Shown here: in pieces, positions 5,618 through 51,534 of the stretch
Numbering within the stretch: the first letter of the stretch is position 1
How the letters are laid out: each line of letters opens with the position of its first letter
From: Escherichia phage vB_EcoS_ULIM2
Sequence record: OQ850291
Length of the DNA stretch: 51,534 nucleotides
Reading direction: 5' to 3' (one strand)
Program-made: the position numbers and the translations under genes
The notes under the pieces: model-generated
Seen by the model: the letters and a program-made list of their open reading frames with translations, nothing else
Databases searched by the model: none
Told to the model about the DNA's origin: nothing

Positions 5618-5633
5618 CACATCATGACAAAAG

Positions 5634-5655
5634 CCCGCCTTGCGCGGGTTTTTTT
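5634..5655 (+). terminator. Terminator hairpin inside the tail gene cluster
   Basis: CCCGC-cttgc-GCGGG followed by 7 T; the same hairpin recurs at 7813-7835; followed by TGTAGAAT -10-like element. Confidence 0.55.
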
Positions 5656-5696
5656 GTAGCTGTAGAATGGTTGCAGGCAAACAAGAGGAAAAATCA

Positions 5697-11343: not shown

Positions 11344-11365
11344 GGGGCCAATCGGCCCCTTTTTT
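11344..11365. terminator. Terminator between convergent J-like gene and minus-strand gene
   Basis: GGGGCC-aatc-GGCCCC followed by TTTTTT. Confidence 0.6.
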
Positions 11366-12329
11366 AATACATGTTTGGAAGAACTATCAACGGAGATTGA
11401 ATTGCTATGTTCCTGTTAGGCATCACGAATTGCTGGCGAGAGTAGTTGCCAACAACCTTATTTTTAGCAACTCTTACCTTGTTTCCAGCCATTCTGATCC
11501 CGTTCATCCTTACGTGGTTGTATCCTCCATTATTTTCAATAAGCGCTCCACAGTATGATAACTGAATCAAGCTGTTTCCTATATCCTGATCCCCTGTACC
11601 GATATTAATTACGCGATTGTAAACGAATGGTTTATTTACTGTAGAAAAAGTAACCTGACCTTGCTTGTTGGTCATGGTTATACCGTTACCGCCGCGAGGG
11701 GGAGTGTTATTGAATATTACCAAATCCATAGTAACAGAAGCCGTCACATCATCCCTTCCACCGTAGGATGCATTCCTTACTGTGATGTTTGAACCGTCAA
11801 ATCCGACGCTTACATTAGGATCATCCCATCTTGCGAATGGTATACCTCCAACTGGCAATCTCATGTTACCATTAACAGTTATTCGATTTGAATATTGGCA
11901 CGTCATTAATTTTGCCACGTTTGATATGGCGGTGAAATCAGTTGAGTTTGCAACAAGCAGACCCTCATTCCTTGTGCCTACTGGTAATATCTCCATGACA
12001 GTACCAGCCCATTGCGGTAAACCTTCGTAGGCGCTTAGTGCATCATCACCTCTGATTATCACTCCGTTGTTACCATTCCTTGACACTGTAGTAACATAAA
12101 ACGGATCTGGTATGACAAGTGTCTGGTCGAACACCTCAATAACGTCAACAGGCTTTGTGAAGACAACAACAACCTGAGATCCCGGAGTCAATGGAGTATT
12201 TATAGTCAACGTCTTATTTGATTGCGCCCTCTGGTTGAAGTTCGCGCAGAATGAAGGGGCGCGAAGACCAGCCGTGATTTGCATCGCAGGACGCCCGTCA
12301 TTGTAATTTACATATATTCCCTCCCCCAT
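11364..12329 (-). CDS. Hypothetical protein, possibly tail-associated/host-range (321 aa)
   Basis: ATG at 12329 with AAGGAG RBS formed by the last codons of the upstream lipoprotein gene; Gly/Asn-rich repetitive sequence. Function not established. Confidence 0.45.
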   Translation of the reverse strand: MGEGIYVNYNDGRPAMQITAGLRAPSFCANFNQRAQSNKTLTINTPLTPGSQVVVVFTKPVDVIEVFDQTLVIPDPFYVTTVSRNGNNGVIIRGDDALSAYEGLPQWAGTVMEILPVGTRNEGLLVANSTDFTAISNVAKLMTCQYSNRITVNGNMRLPVGGIPFARWDDPNVSVGFDGSNITVRNASYGGRDDVTASVTMDLVIFNNTPPRGGNGITMTNKQGQVTFSTVNKPFVYNRVINIGTGDQDIGNSLIQLSYCGALIENNGGYNHVRMNGIRMAGNKVRVAKNKVVGNYSRQQFVMPNRNIAIQSPLIVLPNMY

Positions 12330-12331
12330 AA

Positions 12332-12562
12332 TTACCACTCCTTAGTTTTAACTGACACCTTACCGCTAAAGTTTCCCTGGTTGTCGTCTGATGAAAGACC
12401 TTTGAATCGCATGTCAATCTCGCCAGACGGAATCTTATTGCCATCAACGAATCGCATCATGCAAGATCCGTAAGCGTAAGTAACGCAGTCTCCATTTTTA
12501 AGATTCTGGGCGCAACCAGTCAGGATGAATGCAGCAGCAATAATGGTGATTAACTTTTTCAT
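12332..12562 (-). CDS. cor: Small outer-membrane lipoprotein, Cor-like superinfection exclusion candidate (76 aa)
   Basis: Signal peptide with lipobox LTGC; placement next to tail genes as for Cor in T1-like and lambdoid phages; identity by analogy only. Confidence 0.45.
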   Translation of the reverse strand: MKKLITIIAAAFILTGCAQNLKNGDCVTYAYGSCMMRFVDGNKIPSGEIDMRFKGLSSDDNQGNFSGKVSVKTKEW

Positions 12563-15353: not shown

Positions 15354-15380
15354 GCCCCGCATCAGCGGGGCATATTTTTA
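15354..15380. terminator. Bidirectional terminator between SSB and the convergent tail fibre gene
   Basis: GCCCCGC-atca-GCGGGGC with A-rich and T-rich flanks on either side. Confidence 0.6.
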
Positions 15381-17738
15381 CTTGCTCTCAAGTAATGATT
15401 TTACAATCAACTTCAATTCCTCAACATCATTCCTTAATGAAATAATTTCTTCCTCCTGCTCTTTACACACTTGCACCGCGTATGCGGCAATAGCACCATA
15501 ATCCACCTGGAAGAAGCGCTGACGCCCTACCAGTTCCTCGCCGTCTTGCGTTGGCCCCGCAAGGTGTTCGTAGTCTTCGAACGTACTCACCGCTTCCGGC
15601 ACAACGTCCATTACTTCCTGCGCAATAACCCCGGCGTAAGGCATGCCGTCTTTTTTCATGGTGTAGGTATAACCGCCCATCTTAGCAAGGCCAGCGCGGG
15701 CGTTCTCGATCGGCTTGATGTTATCCTTCAACTCGCGGTCAGACGACTGGTTTACCGTCGTACAGTTTACCGTTCCGTTAACGTTCATCTGTCTAGTGCC
15801 GTTGCCGTTATACTGGGCGTAAAAAAGCCACCCCGGACCATCTTCAAGCCCAAACTCAATAACCGACGCTCGATCTGACCCGTTGCCCCACAATTTGAAG
15901 GTTGCAGGGTGTGACGAGTTGCCGTCGTTAAGCATTTTGAAATACTTGCCACTTGGTCGACTGATCTCCAAGCTCGTCGCTTGAACGTATGCTTTTCCCG
16001 CGAAATTCTTAGTTCCGAGTACGACGCCGTCAGTTATCAATTCAACTTTAGAAGACGTTATATCGTTCAGGAATATCGCGCTCGTCCCGGTGTCCTTCCC
16101 TAAAAACCAAAGACGTTTTCCTGCGGAGTTGTACCCTGTTACGTGCAGTGGTTGGTTGTTTGTTGCGGCGGTGCCGTCGATACGAAATCCTCCATTGACT
16201 GTCGTAACTTTAATGCTAGGTACGGTCATAGCAAAAGTGCCACTGGCGGCAAGTCCATTATACGCGATCAGCTTGTTGTCATATGCAAGCTCACCATTGT
16301 CCCTTAATTGCAAGAATTTATTAGATGCCGAGTTGTGAATAACTACATCATTGGCGCCAGGTTCAATAGTTATGATCTTTCCGTCAACGGAAGCTCGCAC
16401 CGCAGGTCCAGTAATTACTCCGGAAAAAGTCGGCGACGACCCCGCGTTATACAATTCGTACCACTCTGACCAATTTCCAGTTGCCCCATTACTAATCCAG
16501 CGCATCCACCGACGCCCGTCTAAGTATGTTGTGTAAGTCTGCACGCAGCTTGTCACGACGTTAGCACCAGTACGCTGCACCAGCAAGCAACCAGCCGAGG
16601 CGACTGGATAGTTACGCTCAGGGGTGGCGTTCGACGACATGGACTGAAAGTAAAATCCAGCCTTATCCCCTTTCAATACGTTAAGGTCTTCGCTTACCAA
16701 CGTCGCCCGTCTTTCATGCATTGCCTGAAGGTTGGCGCGCGCTCCCTGGTCGTTAGATGCTCCCGTCCCGCCGTCCGCGATCGCCACGTCCCCGTTTGAC
16801 CCCAGCTTAGCCAGCTCGATAGCGCTCACATTCCCCGAGGAGCCGTTGATAGCGTTATTGTTTCCCGAGAAAACCTTCACGCGAGAGGTCTGGAAGTCAA
16901 CGTTAAACGCAAAAAATGTGTCACCAGCGCCACCGCAAATACCCGGACCGTATTTGAACGGGGTCATTTGCCCGGATGGAAACTGACTTATATCGTCAAC
17001 TCGCCAAAAACCGCCTTTGACCGAATCGCGCAACCTTTTTAGCATATCAGCAACGCTTGTTGGGGCGTTGATAGTGGCTCCAACTTTATCAACCTTTTTT
17101 GACGCATCAGCGCTATTCGCGAATTGCTCAGCTTCGTCTCGAAATCCTTTAGCCTGGTCTTTCGCGGTTATGGCCTGCGATCTAGCTGTCTCAGCGGCGG
17201 TCTTTGCGCTGTTGGCGTTCGTCTCACTGGTCTTTGCTGCATTCTTGCTTTGCTCTGCCGATGTTGCAAATTGACTTGCGGCATCACGGCTTGCAGCGGA
17301 TGCGTCGCGAGCAAGCTCAGCTTGATTCTGCGCAGCTTCTGCGGCTGATTTGTTCGCCTTAATTTCCTCAACGATACGGTTAAGGTTATCCATATCCAGA
17401 CTCGCAATGATATCCATTGCCCCGGCAATCTCAGTCTCTTTGCTCTGGTAGTACCGAAGCGTCTCAGCAACGTTTTGAGCCAACCCGTTAACGGTCAATG
17501 AATCGTTAAGCAAGATTACATACTTACCGTCAGCGGCAGTCTGACCATCCGTAGAGATAGCCTTTAACTCTGTGTCGCTCACAATATCGCTGATTACCGC
17601 CAGCTTAATTGGTTGCTCCAGGAATACGATAGTTGCACCGACTCGAATCAAAGCAAGCTGATCTTTCCATTTTGTGTCGGTTCCGTGAACCGTGCCGTCT
17701 GCATCCATTGATGCTGTACCGCGTCTATATAAAGCCAT
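15378..17738 (-). CDS. Tail fibre protein with C-terminal intramolecular chaperone domain (786 aa)
   Basis: Ala/Ser/Gln-rich coiled N-terminal region; C-terminal SSDRELKDNIKPIENARAGLAKMGGYTYTMK resembles the peptidase S74 autocleaving chaperone domain; ATG at 17738 with AAGGAG. Confidence 0.65.
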   Translation of the reverse strand: MALYRRGTASMDADGTVHGTDTKWKDQLALIRVGATIVFLEQPIKLAVISDIVSDTELKAISTDGQTAADGKYVILLNDSLTVNGLAQNVAETLRYYQSKETEIAGAMDIIASLDMDNLNRIVEEIKANKSAAEAAQNQAELARDASAASRDAASQFATSAEQSKNAAKTSETNANSAKTAAETARSQAITAKDQAKGFRDEAEQFANSADASKKVDKVGATINAPTSVADMLKRLRDSVKGGFWRVDDISQFPSGQMTPFKYGPGICGGAGDTFFAFNVDFQTSRVKVFSGNNNAINGSSGNVSAIELAKLGSNGDVAIADGGTGASNDQGARANLQAMHERRATLVSEDLNVLKGDKAGFYFQSMSSNATPERNYPVASAGCLLVQRTGANVVTSCVQTYTTYLDGRRWMRWISNGATGNWSEWYELYNAGSSPTFSGVITGPAVRASVDGKIITIEPGANDVVIHNSASNKFLQLRDNGELAYDNKLIAYNGLAASGTFAMTVPSIKVTTVNGGFRIDGTAATNNQPLHVTGYNSAGKRLWFLGKDTGTSAIFLNDITSSKVELITDGVVLGTKNFAGKAYVQATSLEISRPSGKYFKMLNDGNSSHPATFKLWGNGSDRASVIEFGLEDGPGWLFYAQYNGNGTRQMNVNGTVNCTTVNQSSDRELKDNIKPIENARAGLAKMGGYTYTMKKDGMPYAGVIAQEVMDVVPEAVSTFEDYEHLAGPTQDGEELVGRQRFFQVDYGAIAAYAVQVCKEQEEEIISLRNDVEELKLIVKSLLESK

Positions 17739-26293: not shown

Positions 26294-26307
26294 GCCTCCT
26301 TTCTTTT
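26284..26307. terminator. Bidirectional terminator between the lysis cassette and the minus-strand accessory block
   Basis: GGAGGC-gtaa-GCCTCC with A-run upstream and T-rich run downstream. Confidence 0.6.
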
Positions 26308-26521
26308 ATGCATCAGCCCACATGTAACTTTCGTTAGTGAGTTTTTCGTATTCGCGAACTTCAATTTCACAGGTGTCTCCGTACATCTCAGCTACCTTTT
26401 TCTCATTCGCTACCGCTGATTCCTCGGTCCATCCATCAGCCTTGCTGTAAAGGGTAGGAATCTCACTGCTAGTGCCGTTAGAGTGGTTGTAAACGCGAAC
26501 TACTAAAAATTTGTTAGCCAT
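26306..26521 (-). CDS. Hypothetical protein (71 aa)
   Basis: ATG at 26521 preceded by AAGGAAAG RBS and conserved leader; the track ORF (to 26647) runs through its own promoter. Confidence 0.5.
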   Translation of the reverse strand: MANKFLVVRVYNHSNGTSSEIPTLYSKADGWTEESAVANEKKVAEMYGDTCEIEVREYEKLTNESYMWADA

Positions 26522-26558
26522 GATGCTTTCCTTCATGTCGTTTCGTTTCGATGAAACA

Positions 26559-26601
26559 AATATACCCGATACGAGATCGGGTGTTTTAACAAAAAGTGCT
26601 A
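26559..26601 (-). promoter_or_regulatory. Box-type promoter (leftward)
   Basis: Minus strand TAGCAC-N4-TGTTA (26587-26601), 22 bp, TATATT (26559-26564) inside inverted repeat CCCGAT/ATCGGG. Confidence 0.5.
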
Positions 26602-31932: not shown

Positions 31933-32019
31933 TTAACCCATCCTTTCAATTACAAGGAGCATTACCCAAACCGCTAAGACTAACTGCATCATCATAGCTA
32001 ACAAAAAGAACTTATTCAT
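31933..32019 (-). CDS. Small hydrophobic membrane peptide (28 aa), not in the ORF track
   Basis: ATG overlaps the TGA of the upstream gene (ATGA); GAGGAA RBS 7 nt upstream; translation MNKFFLLAMMMQLVLAVWVMLLVIERMG. Confidence 0.4.
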   Translation of the reverse strand: MNKFFLLAMMMQLVLAVWVMLLVIERMG

Positions 32020-32831
32020 ACTGATTCCTCACTGGCGAATACCTCGCAAGATTCACTGCATGAGCCTGTGTCGAATGATTTTGCCCCACGAACCCTTGCG
32101 GCTACCTCATCCCTCGACTGTGGAAACATCTGTATAATGTCACCGAGTGAGCGCCTTCCTCTGTACATGTCAGATGAAGACTCTTTCTTGTTGTGCTCAC
32201 TGATTGTGTTAATGAATAGCCTTGCAAGCTCCGGCTCATCCTTACAAGCAAGAGCTAGCTTGAGTTCTGACTTCTTGATGCAGAAAACGCAGTTACCAAG
32301 GTGTTCATCAATCCCAAGATCGAAAGGCATGTCACGCCAGAAGTTGATAACGTCCTGCTTATCAAAGTCAGATATGTCTGCAAGGTAACTGAACCCATCA
32401 GCTGCCTTTAATCTCTTTGGCTCATCCGCACGAATGCCAATCCATCGCTGATAATTACCCTTGCCATACTTCTTCTCGCAATACTTTTCAAATGGCTTAG
32501 TCTTCATCCTGTTTGTACAGAATGCACCTCCCTGGTATGGATTTCCGTACTTCCTTAGCATTCTTATCCACCCAACAAGATCGTGATGAATATCGTCCAC
32601 GCTTACAACTTCGAATGATGGGGTTCCGCGGAACTTATCGCTTGGCAAGCATCTTAAGCAAGTTATACCCCTGGGAATCATTGACGATACATTTCGAATA
32701 AACTCATAAGTCATTGGATGTTCTGCGCCAGTGTCCATGTAAATAACCTCAGCGTCAGGATAAATCTTGAGAACCTCAAGTGTCATGTATGCCGAAGTCC
32801 TGCCACCACTAAAACTAATTACCTGATTCAT
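32016..32831 (-). CDS. PP-loop ATPase of the PAPS-reductase-like family (271 aa)
   Basis: N-terminal ISFSGGRTSAYM PP-loop (SGGxxS) motif; ATG at 32831 with AGGGG RBS; the track ORF (to 32900) runs through its promoter. Confidence 0.55.
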   Translation of the reverse strand: MNQVISFSGGRTSAYMTLEVLKIYPDAEVIYMDTGAEHPMTYEFIRNVSSMIPRGITCLRCLPSDKFRGTPSFEVVSVDDIHHDLVGWIRMLRKYGNPYQGGAFCTNRMKTKPFEKYCEKKYGKGNYQRWIGIRADEPKRLKAADGFSYLADISDFDKQDVINFWRDMPFDLGIDEHLGNCVFCIKKSELKLALACKDEPELARLFINTISEHNKKESSSDMYRGRRSLGDIIQMFPQSRDEVAARVRGAKSFDTGSCSESCEVFASEESV

Positions 32832-32865
32832 TTCGACCCCTATCTGTGAGCTAAATAACAACTGC

Positions 32866-32909
32866 ATAATAGCCAATCCTCCGCTACTGGTCGTTAGCAA
32901 AAAATGCTA
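32866..32909 (-). promoter_or_regulatory. Box-type promoter (leftward) for the PP-loop gene
   Basis: Minus strand TAGCAT-N4-TTGCTA (32895-32909), 23 bp, TATTAT (32866-32871). Confidence 0.45.
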
Positions 32910-33099
32910 TTCCAATAATTGCTCATTATTCCATCAATTGTGGAATATGTGGAATAATTCTGATTGTTATTGATTGCGAATGACGAAACGTGATTATTGC
33001 ATGATGTGCAACAGTTGGTTGATTTGTTGATGAGAACGCAATGATTGTTAGAGGGAGGATCTGGTGTTGCCCGGCTCGCCTGGTAGTCATCTCCATTTT

Positions 33100-33114
33100 T
33101 AGCAAAAAGTGCTA
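33100..33114 (-). promoter_or_regulatory. Second palindromic box upstream of the PP-loop gene, no obvious -10
   Basis: TAGCAC-N3-TTGCTA on the minus strand; the position 22 bp downstream is not -10-like. Confidence 0.35.
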
Positions 33115-33391
33115 TCGATTACGATTATGCTTGATTGTGTGTTAATCCATGTATATGATTTGCATAAATCGCAATCGTAGACAAAATTACACCAAATTAC
33201 GCCCTATAATATACATATAGATATATGTATATATATAATATATAAGTGTTTTTTTATTTATATATATAGATACTATTATTTGTAATATGGCTGTATAGCG
33301 TGTCTACTATGTTAATCGTTGGATGCTCTGGTTATGATATTCATGTTTATATATACAGTAGTTTTATCGGCTCATATTTATATGGGAAAAG

Positions 33392-34490: not shown

Positions 34491-34521
34491 TATCCCATCA
34501 ACAACGAATGAGGAAGCGAAG

Positions 34522-34716
34522 ATGGAAACGCAAATTGACGTAGTGGTTGTTCAGCGCGATTCAACTCACGAAAAGGGTCTGTTCAAGAAAGGAACCGAAA
34601 TCACGATCGACCTTGAGGACATGGTTGCGTATCACTCGGGTCTGACCTGGAATGTGGTGCGAGTTGGCAGCGACTACAAACTCAAAGGCTTTAACACTTA
34701 CTTTGCTGAGGCTTAA
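34522..34716 (+). CDS. Hypothetical protein (64 aa)
   Basis: ATG after leader CATCAACAACGAATGAGGAAGCGAAG. Confidence 0.5.
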   Translation: METQIDVVVVQRDSTHEKGLFKKGTEITIDLEDMVAYHSGLTWNVVRVGSDYKLKGFNTYFAEA

Positions 34717-34718
34717 TC

Positions 34719-35189
34719 ATGACGACCATTACCGTATTTCTGGCTAAAGATAATGTTGATGGCGCTATGTCATTCTTCGCGTTCGAGCATGAAGCCGGAT
34801 CGCACTGGCATATGTACACTCATTACACGGTCATCTCAATTGAGGCTTACGACGGCGATTTGCTCACTGACAAGCTGAGTAATTTTATTGATGTGGTTAA
34901 GGATAACGACGGCTGCGAATGGAAAGAAGATAACGAAGTTATGCGAATGTTTGATATGGTCAATCCGGTTCGCCTTGTATCTTTTGAGCTTGGTTCTGAT
35001 GTGACCGTTGAGGTGAGAAAGGCTGGTGAGTTATTGCCAGGAATGCGTGTGCTGACTGGTTACTCAGGTCGTAAGGTATGGCGCACTGTATCTAAGGTTC
35101 GCCAGCGTTCGGCAACTTGCTATAGCATACACTTTGAGGATGGTTGGAACGAGGTCGCCGGAAGCGGCGTGAAGTATCTCACCAAATAG
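34719..35189 (+). CDS. Hypothetical protein (156 aa)
   Basis: ATG 3 nt after the upstream stop. Confidence 0.5.
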   Translation: MTTITVFLAKDNVDGAMSFFAFEHEAGSHWHMYTHYTVISIEAYDGDLLTDKLSNFIDVVKDNDGCEWKEDNEVMRMFDMVNPVRLVSFELGSDVTVEVRKAGELLPGMRVLTGYSGRKVWRTVSKVRQRSATCYSIHFEDGWNEVAGSGVKYLTK

Positions 35190-35229
35190 CACGAATTGTT
35201 AAAACCGGATCGTGGCATCTTGATATAGT
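35187..35229 (+). promoter_or_regulatory. Box-type promoter with an unusually long leader
   Basis: TAGCAC (35187-35192), TTGTTA (35196-35201), 22 bp, TATAGT (35224-35229); about 170 nt of repeat-containing leader before the ATG at 35408. Confidence 0.5.
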
Positions 35230-35263
35230 TACTCCATCGAAACGCTTCGGGGCAAACCCAAAA

Positions 35264-35362
35264 GAAGGAAGCGGCAAACGTAGACCGGAGCCGTGCAAAC
35301 CTCGAAGCAAATTGACTTGGGAAAACCCATTAGGAAGGAAGGGGCAAACGTAGACCGGAGCC
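35264..35362 (+). repeat. Two direct repeats of about 29 bp in the leader
   Basis: GAAGGAAGCGGCAAACGTAGACCGGAGCC (35264-35292) and GAAGGAAGGGGCAAACGTAGACCGGAGCC (35334-35362); further GCAAAC copies at 35252 and 35295. Confidence 0.6.
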
Positions 35363-35407
35363 TCGTAACCCCAAGTTAAAAATGATGTACCAATCAGAGG
35401 AATCACC

Positions 35408-35671
35408 ATGTCAATCGTCAAGAACCGTAACGCAATAGAAGCAACACGCCACAACAAGCAACACGCGATATTCATTGCTCGCTACTGCTCAAACATCAAT
35501 GGTGGCGTGCAGTATCGCCGCTATGCAGTGATTGAGATTTCACCATACATTTACAAGGAGTATCTCGAAGAAAACGGTAAGTGGGTTGAGATCGAAGGTG
35601 TAACGAGCTTCTTGATCTGGAACGGTGAATTTCAGGGTTATGACGATATCAGCACTTTAATTGAGGAGTAA
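35408..35671 (+). CDS. Hypothetical protein (87 aa)
   Basis: ATG preceded by the ACCAATCAGAGGAATCA leader. Confidence 0.5.
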   Translation: MSIVKNRNAIEATRHNKQHAIFIARYCSNINGGVQYRRYAVIEISPYIYKEYLEENGKWVEIEGVTSFLIWNGEFQGYDDISTLIEE

Positions 35672-37508: not shown

Positions 37509-37548
37509 GGCCTTATTGAAGCAGAGCAACCAATCAGAGGAATCAGCT

Positions 37549-37836
37549 ATGAGAAAAACTCATAAGTTAAAAATCGCTCCGGTACATTTCATCGGAGTAA
37601 TGAACGGAACAAAAACGGCAGAGTTCCGCATCAATGACCGCAACTTCCAGGTTGGTGATATCCTTGAGCTACGCGAGTTCGATCGTGACGAGTTTACCGG
37701 GTGGGAAGTTCACGCCAGGGTGTCCGATGTTACAGACGTGACGCCATACATCAATCGCGGTTATGACGAGCAAGAATGCGACTTCACGCAATACGTGATG
37801 TTATCAATCAAGCCTTACAGGAAGGTTGGACCATGA
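37549..37836 (+). CDS. ASCH/PUA-like domain protein (DUF3850-like, 95 aa)
   Basis: KTHKLKIAPVHF...EFRINDRNFQVGDILELRE matches the pattern of small phage ASCH-like proteins from memory; ATG after the CCAATCAGAGGAATCA leader. Confidence 0.45.
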   Translation: MRKTHKLKIAPVHFIGVMNGTKTAEFRINDRNFQVGDILELREFDRDEFTGWEVHARVSDVTDVTPYINRGYDEQECDFTQYVMLSIKPYRKVGP

Positions 37837-38471
37837 AATTTGAGTGCGTATCAAGTAGCGGATCTGGTTTTAAGTTGGGAAAAACTTACAAAGGTGTTCG
37901 CGTAAATGATGACAGCTTCATCATTACTGATGAGAACGGTTGCAACGTGAACGTTGTACGGCGTCACGAATATCAGGAAATTTTCCTGCCTTATGGCGGT
38001 AGCTCAAAATATATCTTCCATCGAATCGTGGATGGTGTTAAATTTAACGACGTAATCGAAGCAATCAACCAACTGCATAATAAAGAGGTAAAATTTATGA
38101 AATTCGAATGTATCAGTGATAACACTAAAAAATTTACCGTTGGCAAAATCTACGACGTGCCTACTGAGCACGCAAAGCACACTGTAGCGCTGACCGACGA
38201 CACGGGCCGCCACCGAATTGCAACCGTAACGCATAATGGCGAAGGTCTTCGCTGGAACAGTGGTGGCACTAAGTTCGCAACGTTCGGCAAGAAGCGCAAG
38301 CGCACTTTCAGCGTCAATGGCAATGTTGCAGCTAACAAGATCCACAACGTCAAGCCGTCGGAAGTTGACCGTAAGCCAGCGCTGAAGTTTGAAGAGAAGG
38401 CAGATTTGTCTGGTCTAGCTATCGCTCTTGTTCTCCTGGTCGCTTCGATTTCGCTGTTGTTCATCATGTAA
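37833..38471 (+). CDS. Hypothetical protein with internal tandem duplication and C-terminal transmembrane anchor (212 aa)
   Basis: Two repeats beginning MKFECVSSSGSGFKLGKTYKG and MKFECISDNTKKFTVGKIYDV; C-terminal LSGLAIALVLLVASISLLFIM; the second repeat has its own in-frame AAGAGG RBS and ATG at 38097. Confidence 0.5.
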   Translation: MKFECVSSSGSGFKLGKTYKGVRVNDDSFIITDENGCNVNVVRRHEYQEIFLPYGGSSKYIFHRIVDGVKFNDVIEAINQLHNKEVKFMKFECISDNTKKFTVGKIYDVPTEHAKHTVALTDDTGRHRIATVTHNGEGLRWNSGGTKFATFGKKRKRTFSVNGNVAANKIHNVKPSEVDRKPALKFEEKADLSGLAIALVLLVASISLLFIM

Positions 38472-38838: not shown

Positions 38839-38865
38839 AACTTACTCAAGGGTATTTGATAGAAT
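38823..38865 (+). promoter_or_regulatory. Box-type promoter
   Basis: TAGCAC (38823-38828), TTGCTA (38832-38837), 22 bp, TAGAAT (38860-38865). Confidence 0.5.
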
Positions 38866-38904
38866 GCCCTTCGTTGAGTTAAGCAACCAATCAGAGGAAT
38901 CACT

Positions 38905-39108
38905 ATGAAAACTATTACCGGAATGAGCGACGAAACGAGAACGCAGATCGTTAGCATGCTAATCGGCATGGCTGACGATATTCAGAATAGCCAAGTCGTT
39001 ATTGATTCATGCAATCAGACTCGTGAGAGTAAATTTGAATCATCCGGCTACAAAATTGTTGAAGAAGAATTAACCATCAAAATCATTCGCGTACAGGAGA
39101 AAGCATAA
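38905..39108 (+). CDS. Hypothetical protein (67 aa)
   Basis: ATG after the CAACCAATCAGAGGAATCA leader. Confidence 0.5.
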   Translation: MKTITGMSDETRTQIVSMLIGMADDIQNSQVVIDSCNQTRESKFESSGYKIVEEELTIKIIRVQEKA

Positions 39109-39641
39109 TGGATAAAATTACCATTTGGGGCCAGGCAATCAACCTATTTCTCGGCACGCGCCGCGTAGCAATCTTTGACTTTGACGGAACACTTAGCGAT
39201 GGATCTGGTCGACTTCACCTGCTACCTACAAAGGATTTGCACTTAACTGAAAGCTGGTCCGAGTTTAACCGCGCGGCAATATTTGACAACCCTATCCAAA
39301 GCACGATCGATGTGATGAACTCTATGTTTGCCGCTGGGTATCATGTAATAATTTTAACCGGGCGAAGTGATGAGGTGCGTTACGCATCTGAGTTATGGCT
39401 TAAGCATCACGGCGCTCGATATGATTACTTAGTCATGCGACCGCACACCGATAACCGCAAAGACACGGTAATGAAAGAAGAGGCGGTGCGCGCTATCGGC
39501 ATTGATAACATTCTGGCGGCCTGGGATGACTCACCGCAAATTATTCCATTATTCCGCTCGCTTGGAATAACCACTTACGCTGTAGTTGACTATGGCGATA
39601 AAGTTCACGAACATTTAAAATCTCACGGGGTAGATGAATGA
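39108..39641 (+). CDS. HAD-family phosphatase, nucleotidase-like (177 aa)
   Basis: FDFDGTL (HAD motif I, DxDGT) near the N-terminus; next to a nucleotide kinase gene. Confidence 0.55.
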   Translation: MDKITIWGQAINLFLGTRRVAIFDFDGTLSDGSGRLHLLPTKDLHLTESWSEFNRAAIFDNPIQSTIDVMNSMFAAGYHVIILTGRSDEVRYASELWLKHHGARYDYLVMRPHTDNRKDTVMKEEAVRAIGIDNILAAWDDSPQIIPLFRSLGITTYAVVDYGDKVHEHLKSHGVDE

Positions 39642-39748
39642 ACCTTTACGAATTTATTGCAGCACATCCGGTATTGACGGTTATCATCCTGTTAATCATC
39701 AATCACACAATCATCAATGTGGCAAAATTATTTTTAGGGAGATACTAA
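39638..39748 (+). CDS. Small hydrophobic membrane peptide (36 aa), not in the ORF track
   Basis: ATGA overlap with the phosphatase stop; translation MNLYEFIAAHPVLTVIILLIINHTIINVAKLFLGRY; stops 1 nt before the kinase ATG. Confidence 0.35.
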   Translation: MNLYEFIAAHPVLTVIILLIINHTIINVAKLFLGRY

Positions 39749-41851: not shown

Positions 41852-42079
41852 ATGACCATTTTTTTATTGATTATCGCTGGTATCGTTATTTTTGGTGCTG
41901 GTTTGTTTGCTGGGTTCGCACTTGTTGCGGCAGCGATTGCGATGGACGCGAAGGATAAAACTGGTGTATGGCTGACCTACTCACCTAAGAAGGACCAATG
42001 GGAAATGATTGGCGACCTTGCTCACTGCTACTCTAAAGCCAAGACCCACCCTAAAGGCATTAAACGACGATTATCGTGA
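41852..42079 (+). CDS. Small membrane protein (75 aa)
   Basis: AAGGAG RBS; N-terminal hydrophobic stretch IFLLIIAGIVIFGAGLFAGFALVAAAIA. Confidence 0.5.
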   Translation: MTIFLLIIAGIVIFGAGLFAGFALVAAAIAMDAKDKTGVWLTYSPKKDQWEMIGDLAHCYSKAKTHPKGIKRRLS

Positions 42080-42088
42080 TAAATACTA

Positions 42089-42109
42089 ACCCGCTTCGGC
42101 GGGTTTTTT
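42089..42109 (+). terminator. Rho-independent terminator before the packaging module
   Basis: CCCGC-ttcg-GCGGG followed by 7 T. Confidence 0.6.
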
Positions 42110-42122
42110 TATGTCTGCAATA

Positions 42123-42146
42123 TGGTAAAATAGCACTAAATGTTAA
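42123..42146 (+). promoter_or_regulatory. Late promoter candidate with the palindromic box downstream of the -10
   Basis: TGgTAAAAT at 42123-42131 followed immediately by TAGCAC-N4-TGTTA (42131-42146); TerS ATG at 42164. Confidence 0.4.
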
Positions 42147-42163
42147 ACAAAGAGGATGGATTT

Positions 42164-42688
42164 ATGAGTGAACCTAAGAACGCTCCCGTAGTCCAGGGTG
42201 GTAATTTCAAAGAGCTATACAAGAAAAAATTCGGCACTGTTCTTGCGAAGAACCGGGCAATGACGCCTGAACAATTGTTCGATCTGTCAGTGAAGTACTT
42301 TGAATGGGCCGAGGACAACGCGATCAAGGCGTCAGAATCAGCCAGCTTTCAGGGTGGCGTTTATGAATCGCTTGTTCATAAACCGCGCGTCTTCACCTGG
42401 ACCGGGTATCGACTATTTATCGGTGCAAGCGAGGCCGCAATCATTAAGTGGAAGCGTGAGGAAGAATACAGTGAGGTTATGGAGTTCGTGGAATCCGTAA
42501 TCAACGAGCAAAAATTTCAGCTTGCCGCAAACGGCGTTATTAACGCCTCATTTATCGGCAAAGATCTCGGAATAGACAAGCCAGCTTCAATCAACATCGA
42601 AAACTCAGCAGCTTCAGCGTCGACCACAGTCGCCACTACTGAGGACGCAATGAAAGAGGCTGTAAACAGTATTCTTGAAATGCTTTAA
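42164..42688 (+). CDS. Terminase small subunit candidate (174 aa)
   Basis: Immediately upstream of the large terminase gene; AAGAGGA RBS. Function from position only. Confidence 0.5.
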   Translation: MSEPKNAPVVQGGNFKELYKKKFGTVLAKNRAMTPEQLFDLSVKYFEWAEDNAIKASESASFQGGVYESLVHKPRVFTWTGYRLFIGASEAAIIKWKREEEYSEVMEFVESVINEQKFQLAANGVINASFIGKDLGIDKPASINIENSAASASTTVATTEDAMKEAVNSILEML

Positions 42689-44349: not shown

Positions 44350-45633
44350 ATGAAAATTGTTAAGCATGATGGATATAACGATATCTTTAACGGCGGCGCG
44401 GACGGATCGCCTAAGCCATTCTTTATGTCTGATGCATCATATCACGTCGGTTCTTTCTACAACGACAACGCAACCGCTAAGCGAATTGTGGATGTTATCC
44501 CGGAAGAGATGGTGACGGCTGGTTTTAAAATGTCAGGCGTTAAGGATGAAAAAGAGTTCAAGTCTTTATGGGATAGCTACAAGCTTGATTCAAGTCTGGT
44601 GGATCTTCTTTGTTGGGCGCGACTTTACGGTGGCGCGGCGATGGTGGCAATCATCAAAGACAACCGGATGTTAACCAGTCAGGCAAAGCCTGGAGCCAAA
44701 CTTGAAGGCGTACGAGTTTACGATCGATTTGCTATCACTGTTGAAAAGCGAGTCACTAATGCAAGATCCCCTCGCTATGGTGAGCCTGAAATTTACAAGG
44801 TATCCCCTGGCGACAATATGCAGCCGTATCTGATTCATCACTCAAGAGTCTTTATTGCTGATGGTGAACGAGTAACGCAACAAGCAAGAAAGCAGAATCA
44901 AGGATGGGGAGCTTCGGTATTGAACAAGTCACTGATTGATGCAATCTGTGACTATGATTACTGTGAATCTCTGGCTACTCAGATCTTGCGACGTAAGCAA
45001 CAGGCTGTATGGAAGGTCAAAGGTCTTGCCGAAATGTGCGATGATGACGACGCTCAGTATGCGGCGCGCCTGCGACTTGCTCAGGTTGATGATAACTCCG
45101 GTGTAGGTCGCGCGATCGGTATCGACGCTGAGACGGAAGAATACGACGTTCTCAACTCTGATATCAGCGGAGTCCCTGAGTTCTTATCAAGCAAGATGGA
45201 CCGCATTGTCTCCCTATCCGGGATTCATGAGATTATCATCAAGAATAAGAACGTAGGCGGCGTATCAGCGAGCCAAAACACGGCGCTTGAGACTTTCTAT
45301 AAGTTAGTCGATCGCAAGCGCGAGGAAGATTACAGGCCGCTTCTTGAGTTCTTGTTGCCGTTCATTGTTGATGAGGAAGAGTGGTCGATCGAGTTTGAGC
45401 CTTTGTCTGTTCCTAGTAAGAAAGAGGAATCAGAGATCACGAAGAATAACGTTGAGTCAGTCACGAAGGCTATCACTGAGCAAATCATCGATCTGGAAGA
45501 AGCTCGCGACACATTGCGATCCATTGCCCCTGAGTTCAAACTCAAGGATGGTAATAACATCAACATTCGCGAACCGGAAGAAACAACCGAGCCGGAACCG
45601 GGGTTAGGGGAGAAGTTAGAAGATGAAAATTAA
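44350..45633 (+). CDS. Portal protein (427 aa)
   Basis: Size and position directly after TerL; GGAGG RBS and ATG at 44350; acidic C-terminus. Confidence 0.65.
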   Translation: MKIVKHDGYNDIFNGGADGSPKPFFMSDASYHVGSFYNDNATAKRIVDVIPEEMVTAGFKMSGVKDEKEFKSLWDSYKLDSSLVDLLCWARLYGGAAMVAIIKDNRMLTSQAKPGAKLEGVRVYDRFAITVEKRVTNARSPRYGEPEIYKVSPGDNMQPYLIHHSRVFIADGERVTQQARKQNQGWGASVLNKSLIDAICDYDYCESLATQILRRKQQAVWKVKGLAEMCDDDDAQYAARLRLAQVDDNSGVGRAIGIDAETEEYDVLNSDISGVPEFLSSKMDRIVSLSGIHEIIIKNKNVGGVSASQNTALETFYKLVDRKREEDYRPLLEFLLPFIVDEEEWSIEFEPLSVPSKKEESEITKNNVESVTKAITEQIIDLEEARDTLRSIAPEFKLKDGNNINIREPEETTEPEPGLGEKLEDEN

Positions 45634-46375
45634 TGGCGTTGCAACACAGTGGCGCTATCCTGAAATGAGCGAGCGCGCAATGTCGCGCTCCCTACAGGAT
45701 GTTGCAGCCAAACTAACTGAAAAAATGCGTGACGAATTAAAGCCGATGAAATTTGACGCTACCGACGAAGAGATAGATCAGGCAGAAAGGTCATTGCTTG
45801 ATTACGTTGAATCACTCATCGCTCCGATTATTGGTTCTCTATCATCCGTTGCGCTCACGATCTATAAATTCAACTCTAAGCAGTGGCTGCGTATCGCTCG
45901 CAATGCTGGAGGTAAGAAGAATCAAGCCGTGATGCTACTTTCCCTGATTGGTCCTACCGCTGCCGAAAGCTGGTACTCAGGACAATATAATCTGTGGCGA
46001 TCGCAGGTGACTACTTCTATCAGGAAATTTGCCGCCAACATGGTTACTGATTTCACTGATAAACTTCGTGCAGCATCCGGTCAGGGTAAAAGCAAGGATT
46101 TTGTTGTTGAACTGGCTAAGGAGCGATTTGGTATTTACCGAAGCTGGGCCAAAAACAGGGCGTCGGGAATTGTCGGAACATGGAACAGTAGACTGATGCG
46201 GCAGCGCATAAAAGACGCTGGTGTATCTTACTATTTCTGGCGCGGGGTGATGGATTTACGCGAACGTGAAAAACATGTAAGATGGGAAGGTAAGCGCATA
46301 GCGGTAGATTCCGATCATGTATTCCCGGGTGAGGAATACAATTGCCGCTGTTGGGCTGTTCCATCGTTCACATAA
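45623..46375 (+). CDS. Head morphogenesis protein (250 aa)
   Basis: Position after the portal gene with overlapping start; C-terminal CRCW motif. Family not verified. Confidence 0.45.
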   Translation: MKINGVATQWRYPEMSERAMSRSLQDVAAKLTEKMRDELKPMKFDATDEEIDQAERSLLDYVESLIAPIIGSLSSVALTIYKFNSKQWLRIARNAGGKKNQAVMLLSLIGPTAAESWYSGQYNLWRSQVTTSIRKFAANMVTDFTDKLRAASGQGKSKDFVVELAKERFGIYRSWAKNRASGIVGTWNSRLMRQRIKDAGVSYYFWRGVMDLREREKHVRWEGKRIAVDSDHVFPGEEYNCRCWAVPSFT

Positions 46376-46390
46376 AGGAGGTGATGAATA

Positions 46391-46873
46391 GTGAATTTTA
46401 ATGATTTGTTTTACCATGAAGGAAAGGATCTCATATGGAAGGTTAGCACATCAAGAAGGGTAAAGGTTGGTGATGTAGCAGGATGGAAGGATGAGCTAGG
46501 GTATGTTTATGTAAGAGTTAACGGTAAGCTAATTCCTGCTCATAGGATAATATGGGAGATGCACTACGGAAAAATTCCAGAAGGTATGGAGATAGACCAC
46601 ATAAATCATATAACCGACGATAACAGGATTGAAAACTTAAGACTGGTAACGAGGAAAGATAACTGCAAAAACGTATCCATGAGCAAATCTAACAAGAGCG
46701 GAGTGGTTGGAGTTAGCTGGTGCAAAAGGACTTGCAAATGGTTTGCATCAATTAGAGTTGATAGAAAGGAAAAGTTTTTGGGTAGATATGATAAAATTGA
46801 GGATGCAGCAGCAGCAAGAAAGGCGGCTGAGTTAAAATACAATTTTCACAAAAATCACGGGAGTAAAAAATGA
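46391..46873 (+). CDS. HNH homing endonuclease with AP2-type DNA-binding domain (160 aa)
   Basis: IDHINHITDDNRIENLRLVTRKDN HNH motif, then AP2-like SGVVGVSWCKRTCKWFASIRV...AAAARKAAE; AT-rich gene with AGG/AGA/ATA codons unlike its neighbours. Confidence 0.75.
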   Translation: MNFNDLFYHEGKDLIWKVSTSRRVKVGDVAGWKDELGYVYVRVNGKLIPAHRIIWEMHYGKIPEGMEIDHINHITDDNRIENLRLVTRKDNCKNVSMSKSNKSGVVGVSWCKRTCKWFASIRVDRKEKFLGRYDKIEDAAAARKAAELKYNFHKNHGSKK

Positions 46874-47982
46874 AGGCAAAGCAAAGATTCGATTCAGTAA
46901 AAATCAAGGCGCACTTTGATGATAACGGTTTTTTAGTTGACCGCCCAATCGTGGCGCGAATCGGCGCTCAGGTTTACAAAACGCCGCACGGCGATCGAGT
47001 TGAGTTCCGTCCGGCGTCCGAAGTTTTCAAGCAAGATTCCTTGCAAAGTTTTGCAGGCAAGCCGATCACAGTCGGTCACGTAACGGTAACTCCGCAGAAT
47101 GCTAAGGACGTTGTTGTCGGATCGTGTGCTGGCGCTGGTATTGCTTCAGGGGTTGGCGTTGAAGTTCCTTTGAGTATTTACAGCGACTACGCGATCAGCA
47201 AGGCTAAAGCAAAAGAAGCAGGTGAATTATCTGTTGGTTATACTTCGGTTGACATTGATAAGCCTGGTTGGGGTTCAAATGAGACTGGAGAATATATCTT
47301 CGAAGAGGATATGAAGCAGGACGAAGCGCCGCCTGAAGGCTGGGTGAAATTTGACGCGGTACAGACCAATATCAAGGTCAACCATATTGCCCTAGTTTTT
47401 AAAGGTCGTGCGGGAATTGCTAAATTAAATCTTGATGCCGAACAGGAGTTCCCGTATGATAATAACGTTCAATTAACTAACGAGGACAAGCAAATGAAAA
47501 AAATTAAGATCGACTCAGTTGATGTGGAAGTAACCGAAGACGTTGCGAACCATATCGAAAAATTAACCGCGCAGATTGCCACCATTCAGGGGAAAGCTGA
47601 TGGCTTCGAAGCTGAGCGCGATGCGCTGAAGGTTAAGGTTGACTCCCTGCCGGAACTGGTTAAGGCCGAGGTAGAGAAGCAAAAAGCCGATGCCGCCGCA
47701 CGCGCAGAAGTTACCGCAGTAGCAGAAACCGCAGGTGTCAAACATGATGGTCTTGATATCAAAGACGTCAAGATTGCCGTGGTTAAAGCCATGCTTGATA
47801 AAGATGTTAGTGAAAAATCAGACGCATATATCGACGCTATGTTTGATGTTGCTAAAGATTCTGATATCATGGCTATTCAGCGTAAAGCAGTAAAAGGCGA
47901 CTCTATCGAAGGCGGCAAGCCGGAAGAGAAAAACGACGCCGCTCCTGTTACGCCAAATTCACGTTTAAGCAAAGTAATGTAA
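46870..47982 (+). CDS. Putative head scaffolding protein (370 aa)
   Basis: Position between portal/morphogenesis and capsid genes; C-terminal half is a long E/K/A-rich coiled-coil-like region. Confidence 0.45.
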   Translation: MKAKQRFDSVKIKAHFDDNGFLVDRPIVARIGAQVYKTPHGDRVEFRPASEVFKQDSLQSFAGKPITVGHVTVTPQNAKDVVVGSCAGAGIASGVGVEVPLSIYSDYAISKAKAKEAGELSVGYTSVDIDKPGWGSNETGEYIFEEDMKQDEAPPEGWVKFDAVQTNIKVNHIALVFKGRAGIAKLNLDAEQEFPYDNNVQLTNEDKQMKKIKIDSVDVEVTEDVANHIEKLTAQIATIQGKADGFEAERDALKVKVDSLPELVKAEVEKQKADAAARAEVTAVAETAGVKHDGLDIKDVKIAVVKAMLDKDVSEKSDAYIDAMFDVAKDSDIMAIQRKAVKGDSIEGGKPEEKNDAAPVTPNSRLSKVM

Positions 47983-47993
47983 GGAGAAATATC

Positions 47994-48470
47994 ATGGCAC
48001 AGATTAACGCATCTTATCAGCGCGATATGGCGATCGCCCTTCCGGGTATGGTTGCCGATACTTCCAAGTACAATATTGACGGCGCCTGCGTCGTTAATGA
48101 AGGAGATGTTTTTGTTGGCGCTGCCGTACAGGTTGTTCAAGCTCAGGCGGTTGATGGTCATAAGTTAGTTAAGGCTCTTACTACCGGAACCACTCCTTAC
48201 GGCGTGGCAATCCGATCTCACTGGCAGACTGTTAATGCTCAAAATCAGATGGTTTACGAAGATGGCGGCGCTATCAACGTGATGACTTCAGGCCGAGTAT
48301 GGATGCTTTCCAAATCTACCGAAGCACCAACTTTCGGCTCTGCCGTTAAACTTGATGTTGATGGTCAAGAGAAATCTGATGGCACGATCGAAACAACCTG
48401 GACCTACGCTGGCGGCTGGACTAAATACAAAGATATTCAGCTTGTAGAGGTTCAGTTGCATCAACTGTAA
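47994..48470 (+). CDS. Capsid-associated protein, paralog A (158 aa), putative decoration protein
   Basis: N-terminal 100 residues align by eye with the next gene (ADTSKYNIDGACV / SDTSTYNIDGSCV; TTPYGVAIRS / GTPYGIAFRS). Confidence 0.45.
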   Translation: MAQINASYQRDMAIALPGMVADTSKYNIDGACVVNEGDVFVGAAVQVVQAQAVDGHKLVKALTTGTTPYGVAIRSHWQTVNAQNQMVYEDGGAINVMTSGRVWMLSKSTEAPTFGSAVKLDVDGQEKSDGTIETTWTYAGGWTKYKDIQLVEVQLHQL

Positions 48471-48485
48471 TTAGCATTTAATATA

Positions 48486-48515
48486 AGGACTATCCTTTTG
48501 GATAGTCCTTTTTTT
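48486..48515 (+). terminator. Strong rho-independent terminator between the two paralogs
   Basis: Perfect 10-bp stem AGGACTATCC/GGATAGTCCT followed by 7 T. Confidence 0.7.
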
Positions 48516-51142: not shown

Positions 51143-51513
51143 TGAACTACTCACAGATTGAAAGGATGGCTCGCAAAGGCGTTGCTTTCTTCACCGATCC
51201 GTCAAGACCTATGAACCTGATAAAACAAGGTGAATACGGATATGATGAAAACGGATTTGAGATCCCACCAATGGAACAGGTTATTCCAATATCCGGCGCG
51301 ACGCGAAGACCTAACGCGCGTGAGATTGACGGTGAAACTATCCGCGCCTCAGATATTTTGGGGATCTTCAATAATGATCATGAAATAAACGAAGGTGACT
51401 ATATAGAGATTGATGGCATTCGTCATGTTGTCGTTGATGCTCGCCCGGTTCAGGCGTCACTGGAACCAATCGCCTATCGTCCAGTATTGCGGAGGGTATC
51501 AGTAGGTGGCTAA
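51142..51513 (+). CDS. Putative head-tail adaptor protein (123 aa), crosses the repeat junction
   Basis: ATG at 51142 with GGAGG RBS; its last 106 nt lie inside the terminal repeat and are duplicated at positions 1-106. Confidence 0.4.
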   Translation: MNYSQIERMARKGVAFFTDPSRPMNLIKQGEYGYDENGFEIPPMEQVIPISGATRRPNAREIDGETIRASDILGIFNNDHEINEGDYIEIDGIRHVVVDARPVQASLEPIAYRPVLRRVSVGG

Positions 51514-51534
51514 TTATCAAATTCGTAGATTTCA

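Follow-up and report, generated by a model that had tools for sequence, protein, structure and literature searches.

The open reading frame at positions 46391-46873 (+ strand) of the window, i.e., the whole stretch of 51,534 nucleotides from Escherichia phage vB_EcoS_ULIM2 that was analysed, is very probably a free-standing HNH(N)-AP2 homing-endonuclease gene, which a T1-like phage carries in its late head operon as an optional passenger. As judged from the distribution and sequence of the gene and its relatives, it is best explained as a homing-endonuclease gene that would be active or recently active, and that would represent neutral cargo of the late operon. HNH-AP2 proteins are already known as a homing-endonuclease family in phages, with a lifestyle in which the genes are clustered beside essential genes (PMC10448857, PMC2248197), and homologs at the junction described here are annotated in GenBank as HNH endonuclease or AP2 domain protein. 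A literature search retrieved neither a biochemical study of an HNH-AP2 enzyme from Drexlerviridae nor an account of the head-morphogenesis/protease junction. New are the presence of the window lineage in Tunavirus, the dissection of the inserted cassette, the lineage-specific codon replacements that accompany it, and a rare-codon signature that is shared by the family as a whole.

Context, domains and composition of the HNH-AP2 gene

The window represents a T1-like phage (genus Tunavirus, family Drexlerviridae) and for most of its length shares approximately 94% identity with T1. Its first 127 bases are the same as its last 127 bases, indicating a complete genome of 51,407 bp that was assembled as a circle. 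The late head operon encodes, in this order, the large terminase, the portal, a Mu F-like head-morphogenesis protein, the HNH protein, a DUF2213 protease/scaffold protein, two cement or decoration proteins, and the major capsid protein. The HNH gene is located two genes downstream of the large terminase gene and not beside the small terminase gene. A preliminary description of this DNA had recognized a genuine HNH reading frame between the head-morphogenesis gene and the following head gene, which was confirmed; the designation of that following gene as scaffolding needs refinement, in that it encodes a fusion of a DUF2213 head-maturation protease and a scaffold. The HNH gene is free-standing, with its own ribosome-binding site and a position between two complete genes, neither of which it interrupts. 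Rfam searches of positions 45600-48000, including the group I and group II introns, returned no family at E≤1, which indicates that no intron is present there. No promoter-like or terminator-like sites were detected within the insert, promoter-like matches being at chance level, and the nearest downstream terminator-like hairpin is found at 48485-48510. A tblastn search revealed no HNH paralogs elsewhere in the window.

The gene starts with GTG and encodes a protein of 160 amino acids, for which 583 homologs were retrieved at E≤1e-3. An HNH_3 beta-beta-alpha-metal nuclease core, encoded at 46538-46663 (+ strand; residues 50-91), was recognized by Pfam (PF13392, E=5.5e-23, 80.8 bits versus a cut-off of 24.8), phmmer, and Foldseek. 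An AP2-type DNA-binding domain, consisting of a three-stranded sheet and a helix, is predicted at 46697-46828 (+ strand; residues 103-146) on basis of the structural model and a Pfam match below threshold (PF00847, E=1.1e-3, 19.7 bits versus a curated cut-off of 33.3); several homologs have a precomputed PF00847 match. The protein was assigned to phrog_99 'HNH endonuclease' in PHROGs (E=1e-66), and an NCBIfam search with the 160-residue protein gave no match. Among solved structures, phmmer identified the nicking enzyme I-HmuI (1u3e) as the best match (E=0.005), followed by weak AP2 matches (3igm and 7wq5). In the phmmer alignment to 1u3e, D69-H70, N82, and N91 were placed opposite D74-H75, N87, and N96 of I-HmuI, of which the catalytic roles are reportedly those given by Shen et al. 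in 2004. Across 40 homologs D69, H70, and N82 are invariant, and N91 is conserved in at least 90%. The protein contains only three cysteines and no CxxC pairs.

An AlphaFold2 model that was generated from the 40 homologs had a mean pLDDT of 90.1. The N-terminus of the model is composed of beta-hairpins, the nuclease core of strands 66-70 and 83-87 with helix 88-92, and the C-terminus of a three-stranded sheet (108-133) packed against a helix (136-149). The top Foldseek match in the PDB was I-HmuI 1u3e (probability 1.00), covering 95 columns within approximately the N-terminal 100 residues. The C-terminal part matched the AP2 domains of TEM1 (7et5), WRI1 (7wq5), and AtERF1 (1gcc) with probabilities of 0.99-1.00 and E-values of only 0.05-0.24; AtERF1 superimposed on the model with an rmsd of 1.8 A over 53 columns and a TM-score of 0.68, normalised to the target. 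According to these alignments and the model, the protein is predicted to combine an I-HmuI-like HNH_3 nuclease core, with an intact catalytic set, and a C-terminal AP2 fold. Both domain assignments of the preliminary description are thereby upheld. In the AP2 assignment, which is weak by sequence alone, the predicted structure carries more weight than the sequence.

Statistics of GC content and codon use per gene agreed with the foreign, AT-rich composition that had been noted in the preliminary description. The GC content of the HNH gene is 0.381 versus 0.457 for the window, which is the minimum among the window genes of at least 100 amino acids and belongs to the lowest 2.1% of all stretches of 483 nt. 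All 12 of its arginine codons are AGA or AGG (AGR), versus 163 of 754 in all other genes (Fisher p=1.5e-8), and ATA is used for 6 of its 11 isoleucine codons, versus 147 of 1043 elsewhere (p=2e-3). The enrichment of AGG, AGA, and ATA was thereby upheld, whereas the additional statement that flanking genes avoid these codons was not: in the seven head-module neighbours they are rare rather than absent (AGR 15/102, ATA 6/150). The same bias was encountered in nine Drexlerviridae HNH-AP2 genes from four different sites, which use AGR for 113 of their 133 arginine codons at a GC content of 0.38-0.42; the head genes of their host genomes have a GC content of 0.46-0.52 and approximately 10% AGR. The rare-codon, low-GC signature is a trait of the whole HNH-AP2 family, and drift of the HNH gene composition towards that of the host genome was not seen in any lineage. 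Three other AGR- and ATA-rich genes of the window (11364-12338, 32016-32900, and 99-542) were considered as endonuclease candidates and rejected, as they encode a DUF6453 protein, a PAPS-reductase-like protein, and a tail component, respectively.

Occupied and empty alleles of the head-morphogenesis/protease junction

The gene is missing from T1 and from 58 of 58 close relatives, i.e., phage-collection records with a coverage of 80% or more of a 3.5-kb query that surrounds the site. These genomes match the query in two pieces, with approximately 0.49 kb absent and the head genes abutting. This comparison with relatives had been proposed in the preliminary description, and its outcome supports the suggested insertion of a mobile homing endonuclease in a conserved head operon. 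The best full-length DNA match to the HNH gene in the phage collection was 78.6% identical. Four independent metagenomic contigs of T1-like phages have a 98-99% identical (98.4-99.4%) copy at the same junction; such near-identical copies were encountered only on unannotated contigs, which originate from several sequencing projects, and always at the T1-like head-module junction. Besides this junction, T1 has three positions at which the family is represented, since it encodes the paralogs ST63, ST15, and ST8, which are 39-49% identical to the HNH protein, adjoin the pnk, exonuclease, and helicase genes, and are all absent from the window; T1 and the window together display four polymorphic sites for one endonuclease family.

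Among the HNH-bearing T1-like genomes the insert differs by 0.6-1.6%, versus 1-5% for the 1-kb flanks, which are mosaic. For example, the window and one of the contigs have 6 mismatches in 508 nt of the insert, versus 19.6 expected from the flank rate (Poisson p=3.5e-4). The lower divergence of the insert as compared to its mosaic flanks indicates a common ancestor that is younger than the surrounding DNA, and residence in differing backgrounds. This pattern fits homing with very short co-conversion; the insert could also have reached mosaic backgrounds through ordinary homologous recombination alone, when T1-like phages co-infect a cell. A long co-conversion tract was not found, and the flank identity profiles are without a step at the junction. 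Besides the replaced codons, the sole flank polymorphism that is exclusive to HNH-bearing Tunavirus is a T for C at 46342, 21 nt upstream of the junction. A further contig (L095) that was considered to contain a different insert at a T1-type junction was rejected, as the segment is a frame-shifted protease region.

The junctions were compared by motif anchoring; a MAFFT alignment of the window with the empty site of T1 misplaces the left flank. The insert is a 0.49-kb cassette that takes the place of the last few codons of the head-morphogenesis gene, and BLAST against the whole T1 genome delimited the segment that is absent from T1 to 46364-46856, which replaces 9 nt of T1. The T1 junction reads TGG GCT GTT CCA GAC TTT TCT ACA GGA GAT TAA AA ATG AAG, encoding W-A-V-P-D-F-S-T-G-D-stop, followed by the protease start. 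In the window, the left junction reads TGG GCT GTT CCA TCG TTC ACA TAA AGGAGGTGATGAATA GTG, followed by the HNH gene, which in turn ends at the right junction in CAC GGG AGT AAA AAA TGA AGG. At the left cassette edge (46364-46375, + strand), the head-morphogenesis gene ends in replaced codons, TCG TTC ACA TAA (S-F-T-stop), of which the T1 counterpart is GAC TTT TCT ACA GGA GAT TAA (D-F-S-T-G-D-stop). A spacer of 15 nt lies between this stop and the HNH start codon, and includes a Shine-Dalgarno sequence, AGGAGG, that was read from the sequence at 46376-46381 (+ strand), 9 nt upstream of the GTG.

At the right cassette edge (46859-46873, + strand), the ribosome-binding site of the protease is formed by GGGAG (46859-46863) within the last HNH codons, and the protease start (46870) overlaps the HNH stop TGA in the sequence ATGA (46870-46873). 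This edge imitates the native T1 junction GGAGATTAAAAATGA, and all occupants of the junction end in ...NHG(S/D/RL)KK-stop over the same nucleotides. The tight overlaps that had been described for the gene exist at this 3' end only, the 5' end being set off by the 15-nt spacer. The HNH start codon is GTG in the window and two metagenomic copies, TTG in the two other metagenomic copies, and ATG in the copies of ESCO41, Klebsiella phi1, and the HZJ32 type. As the cassette provides a new upstream stop, its own ribosome-binding site, and a rebuilt protease ribosome-binding site and start, the operon stays intact.

Polymorphism for presence and absence at this junction extends to other Drexlerviridae genera, in agreement with the mobile character assigned to the gene. 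The identical junction is occupied by the gene for an 81-82% identical protein in Escherichia phage ESCO41 (Nouzillyvirus) and, among Klebsiella phages, in a minority. With a Klebsiella query, 18 of 351 records of Klebsiella phages (mostly Webervirus) were found to carry the gene, and most others had an empty junction. All 24 full-length DNA matches that lie in annotated regions of the phage collection are positioned between head-morphogenesis and protease genes. Moreover, two further HNH-AP2 lineages, 49-54% identical to the window lineage, occupy the same junction. The first is the type of HZJ32 and PhiKpNIH-2 gp08, which is 49-51% identical and no closer to the window lineage than paralogs from other sites; the second, on IMG/VR contig L031, has 54% identity to the window lineage over the whole protein and 62% within the AP2 part. 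In PhiKpNIH-2 a further family member separates the portal gene from the head-morphogenesis gene, and in one metagenomic T1-like contig a member is located just 5' of the large terminase gene. Occupation of several positions in the head module marks this module as a hot spot, as in other phages (PMC10448857).

The codons directly left of the insertion point (46343-46363, + strand) are the last conserved ones of the head-morphogenesis gene and encode C-R-C-W-A-V-P; on basis of a survey of 96 loci and the table of polymorphisms they are proposed as the recognition region. In this survey, C-R-C-W-x-x-P was one of two search patterns, and it was present in 96 of the 96 loci. The window lineage always adjoins W-A-V-P-S-F, in Tunavirus, Nouzillyvirus, and Klebsiella phage backgrounds alike, and the HZJ32 lineage always adjoins W-A-C-P-D/E-F. 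Empty sites read P-D/E-F in most cases, and P-A-F, P-K-F/W, P-D-W, or P-Y-W in others. Both replacements, GAY to TCN (Asp-to-Ser) and GTT to TGC (Val-to-Cys), alter several codon positions. The empty alleles of different genera have a common homologous tail, P-D-F-x-x-x-G-D/E-stop, which makes it simplest to regard the empty state as ancestral, independent precise deletions being unlikely. Lg3 and IMG/VR contig L026 are Tunavirus members with an empty site that reads P-A-F-T-stop followed by a 14-nt spacer, and resemble the occupied allele minus the reading frame; this allele may be either a recipient allele or a loss product. A simple deletion between two ribosome-binding-site-like repeats of the occupied allele was considered as the origin of Lg3 and rejected, as the predicted product mismatches the Lg3 spacer.

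Proposed mode of spread and alternative explanations

The distribution of alleles suggests that the enzymes would recognize the conserved coding sequence directly left of the insertion point, and that the codon replacements would protect their carriers. In a mixed infection, the enzyme would nick or cut the DNA of a related phage at the empty junction, in or beside the C-R-C-W-A-V-P-D-F coding sequence; the candidate position, predicted from the alleles, is within or near TGGGCTGTTCCAGACTTT at the T1 junction. I-HmuI is a strand-specific nicking enzyme, which makes nicking the most likely chemistry of the HNH-AP2 protein, and by analogy the enzyme probably nicks. Recombinational repair from the HNH-bearing genome would then copy the cassette together with a very short flank, of at most approximately 21 nt on the left and none detectable on the right. 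The Asp-to-Ser replacement (GAY to TCN), which accompanies the window lineage in every background, would render the site of the carrier itself resistant. Alternatively, the codon replacement may be due to a 6-nt donor flank that hitch-hiked with the insert. Finally, the rare codons, the low GC content, and the non-ATG start could keep expression of the nuclease low.

A wider reading of the same alleles, which is tentative and on balance unlikely, portrays the junction as a contested landing pad for at least three competing HNH-AP2 lineages, each with its own 'immunity' codon replacement that alters several nucleotides of the C-R-C-W-A-V-P-D-F motif, which is otherwise invariant, in an essential gene, i.e., Asp to Ser for the window lineage and Val to Cys for the HZJ32 lineage. 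Under this reading, the dN/dS of approximately 0.06 that is discussed below, in a protein that is better conserved than portal and capsid, would be the outcome of selection that acts on the phage in competition with other phages, beyond parasitism; empty altered alleles such as the P-A-F-T of Lg3 would be resistant survivors, and the AGA/AGG/ATA signature would have been selected to throttle a toxic nuclease.

The proposal of a homing endonuclease as neutral cargo has to account for the strong constraint on the protein. Between genera, the HNH gene has a dN of approximately 0.12 and a dN/dS of approximately 0.06, and its product remains 81-82% identical; the adjacent portal, head-morphogenesis, protease, and capsid genes have a dN of 0.26-0.48, with 48-71% protein identity between genera and 48-62% in comparison with the window. 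The nuclease core is the best-conserved part of the HNH protein, with 91% identity across genera versus 71-82% elsewhere. These substitution patterns argue that the protein is clearly kept functional by purifying selection, and that the constraint appears to exceed that usually credited to a purely parasitic gene. This leaves room for an alternative explanation, in which the gene is a resident, beneficial nuclease that was ancestral to several Drexlerviridae genera, has been kept by selection, and was lost many times; its benefit could be, e.g., cutting of the DNA of co-infecting relatives (marker exclusion), or of host or satellite DNA. The use of one and the same junction by the gene in three or more genera speaks for this, as does the saturation of synonymous sites among these copies (dS approximately 1.8 or not computable), by which they would be old. 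The flanks are saturated as well, the saturation implies that transfer between genera cannot be dated, and old vertical residence with many losses may apply in the three genera.

Several observations nevertheless render a resident nuclease improbable. The gene is the minority state everywhere examined (0/58 close Tunavirus and 18/351 Klebsiella phage records), and the homologous native tail of the empty alleles argues that these are ancestral. Moreover, within Tunavirus the insert diverges less than its flanks, and the base composition has not drifted towards that of the host genome in any lineage. Marker exclusion is in addition a known consequence of homing endonucleases, by which this alternative overlaps with the preferred explanation of a mobile homing-endonuclease gene.

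Recruitment of the HNH protein for packaging or head morphogenesis, which the preliminary description had mentioned as a possibility, was not supported and is very improbable. HK97 gp74 stimulates terminase cleavage at cos, and there is published work on packaging-associated HNH proteins. The window gene does share its location and its transcript with the terminase-portal-head module, the closest terminator-like site being the one at 48485-48510, but T1 and most relatives are viable, and assemble and package, without it. It is also not beside the small terminase gene, and its product is of the HNH_3 rather than the PF01844 type of HK97 gp74 and has no zinc CxxC pairs. T1 is a headful (pac) packaging phage and not a cos phage, and its record annotates a 2800-bp terminal repeat. 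Moreover, the T1 paralogs adjoin pnk, exonuclease, and helicase genes. Equally improbable is a regulator with a dead nuclease, in which AP2 would control late gene expression and HNH would be a relic: AP2 is a transcription-factor domain in plants and apicomplexans, and DNA-binding domains of homing endonucleases became repressors in other phage systems (PMC10448857), but among the 40 homologs the catalytic D69, H70, and N82 do not vary and N91 is retained in at least 90%, and no other part of the protein is as well conserved as the HNH core (91% versus 71-82%).

The importance of these findings is modest. For annotation, the gene should be labelled as an optional homing endonuclease and not as a head or packaging component, and phylogenies and comparative maps of T1-like phages are best made with the junction masked. 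The locus represents a natural experiment, in which one junction is found empty or occupied by any of three endonuclease lineages, with changes in the invariant motif of an essential gene that are specific to the lineage. The combined junction data predict a target sequence, and could lead to a site-specific nicking enzyme that is new. As rare codons mark the whole family, the question arises how phages restrain the expression of such nucleases.

Comparison with known systems

Packaging-associated HNH proteins of the HK97 gp74 type have the classical PF01844 domain with Cys/His zinc pairs, whereas the window protein matches only PF13392 and AP2 at E≤0.01 and lacks CxxC; the gp74-type genes are located beside the small terminase gene of cos-type phages and present in all relatives, whereas the window gene is absent from most. 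The Seg and Mob enzymes of T4 (e.g., SegG and MobE) are similar in that they are encoded by optional intergenic genes, which spread by cleaving the allele without the gene, with co-conversion (PMC10448857). In contrast to the window protein, Seg proteins are GIY-YIG enzymes and Mob proteins belong to a different HNH subgroup that lacks AP2, and their co-conversion tracts are usually longer than the approximately 21 nt at the window locus. I-HmuI of Bacillus phage SPO1 (1U3E) shares the N-terminal beta-hairpins and the nuclease core, with aligned catalytic Asp-His and two Asn residues; it differs in that its gene lies within a group I intron in the gene for DNA polymerase, and that its C-terminal DNA-binding modules are other than AP2.

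The HNH(N)-AP2 family was reportedly defined by Magnani et al. in 2004. Examples are T1 ST63, ST15, and ST8, group I genes of the Xanthomonas phages Xp10, OP1, and Xop411, and members in RB49 and Felix O1; the 'IPA-HNH' genes of ICP1 represent a divergent relative of the family. The window protein resembles this family in its two-domain layout, its length of approximately 160 amino acids, the absence of zinc Cys pairs, and the D-H...N...N active site. Likewise, the gene stands free between other genes, has essential genes as neighbours, and varies in presence among close relatives (PMC2248197, PMC10448857). It differs from the three copies of T1 itself in belonging to a distinct lineage (39-49% identical) with its own fixed site, the head-morphogenesis/protease junction.

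The copies of ESCO41 (gp72, YP_009789936.1) and of Klebsiella phages such as phi1_146005, KpS4, Roth87, and MMBB have the same junction and length and are 81-82% identical. They have in common with the window the C-terminus ...FHKNHG(S/D)KK over the protease start, the upstream change to Pro-Ser-Phe, the low GC content, and the use of AGR and ATA codons. These copies differ from the window gene in residing in another genus background (flanking proteins 48-62% identical) and in starting with ATG, whereas the window has a shorter upstream gene (S-F-T-stop), a 15-nt spacer with a strong ribosome-binding site, and a GTG start.

Codon usage and GC content of the HNH-AP2 genes

Codon usage was counted in nine HNH-AP2 genes, comprising the window gene (46391-46873), five genes from other surveyed records (L002 3000-3482, L003 3012-3497, L013 1270-1755, L014 [phage PhiKpNIH-2] 7-501, and L031 [an IMG/VR contig] about 3252-3734), and the three genes of phage T1 (L096 5465-5959, 42028-42510, and 46085-46624). 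AGA or AGG accounted for 113 of the 133 Arg codons across this set, and in all nine genes ATA was frequent and the GC content was 0.38-0.42, while the head genes of the host genomes ranged from 0.46 to 0.52. This signature persists despite saturated synonymous divergence, and may result either from continual exchange with a low-GC gene pool or from selection for rare codons that limit expression.

Occupied and empty states of the head-gene junction

Besides the lineage present in the window, the junction between the head-morphogenesis and protease genes also holds two other HNH-AP2 lineages, with proteins that are 49-54% identical to the window protein (L013 1270-1755, L014 1245-1730, L031 about 3252-3734, and loci L057, L063, and L070). 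A Val-to-Cys change in the invariant motif of the upstream gene (W-A-C-P) always accompanies one of the lineages at this junction, HZJ32. Moreover, in PhiKpNIH-2 the family member gp10 (L014 7-501) separates the portal gene from the head-morphogenesis gene, and one metagenomic T1-like contig carries an HNH_3 gene directly upstream of the large terminase gene (L005 1-368). The head module of these relatives thus looks like an endonuclease hot spot.

A second type of empty junction within Tunavirus was encountered in phage Lg3 (L008 2850-2895) and in the IMG/VR contig L026, where the upstream gene ends in W-A-V-P-A-F-T-stop, followed by the 14-nt spacer AAGAGAGGTTAAAA. This junction is similar to the occupied allele minus the ORF and may represent a recipient allele, a product of insert loss, or a cleavage-resistant variant. 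In three other empty sites (L089-L091) the head-morphogenesis gene ends in P-Y-W-G-D-K-K-stop, approximately 40 nt past the C-R-C-W motif, encoded by GGAGATAA(A/G)AAATGA. In L090 and L091 this stretch is identical to the final codons of the Klebsiella-phage HNH genes (H-G-D-K-K-stop), and in L089 it differs from them by one base; the tail may be the scar of a lost insert or native sequence mimicked by the insert. Finally, in the IMG/VR T1-like contig L095 (3170-3740) the junction is of the T1 type and the protease gene after it is split into short frames, which probably reflect a sequencing or assembly error rather than a different insert.

Genome ends and segments without a T1 match

Comparison of the window ends revealed that positions 1-127 and 51408-51534 are identical, with an exact match at length 127 only; the window is therefore a complete, circularly assembled phage genome of 51,407 bp, and the repeat is an assembler k-mer overlap.

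Several segments of this genome have no T1 match. Segment 11140-12511, which stands in place of the T1 region around ST32, ST31, and cor, contains a DUF6453 gene on the minus strand (11364-12338, 324 aa, E=4e-124) that is likewise rich in AGA/AGG (12/18) and ATA (13/24). The window-only segment 30902-32996 includes a minus-strand PAPS-reductase-like gene (32016-32900, 294 aa; AGA/AGG 12/19), and the stretch following this gene (32901-33383) has a GC content of 0.315, one of the two lowest in the genome. Segment 15392-17300 probably represents a host-range difference from T1, because it lies within a large minus-strand ORF (15378-17738) that is the counterpart of the T1 tail-fibre gene. The remaining segments (26306-26599, 34508-35566, 37534-38084, 38853-39104, and 39534-39746) consist of small early-region genes.

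Comparison with the HNH-AP2 genes of T1

Comparison of the window with the T1 genome detected none of the T1 genes ST63 (5465-5959), ST15 (42028-42510), and ST8 (46085-46624) in the window, and the two phages have zero endonuclease sites in common. The three T1 sites correspond to window positions about 39534-39746, 24815/24857, and 28765/28770. The T1 genes have a GC content of 0.40-0.42, and their proteins share 39-49% identity with the window HNH-AP2 protein.
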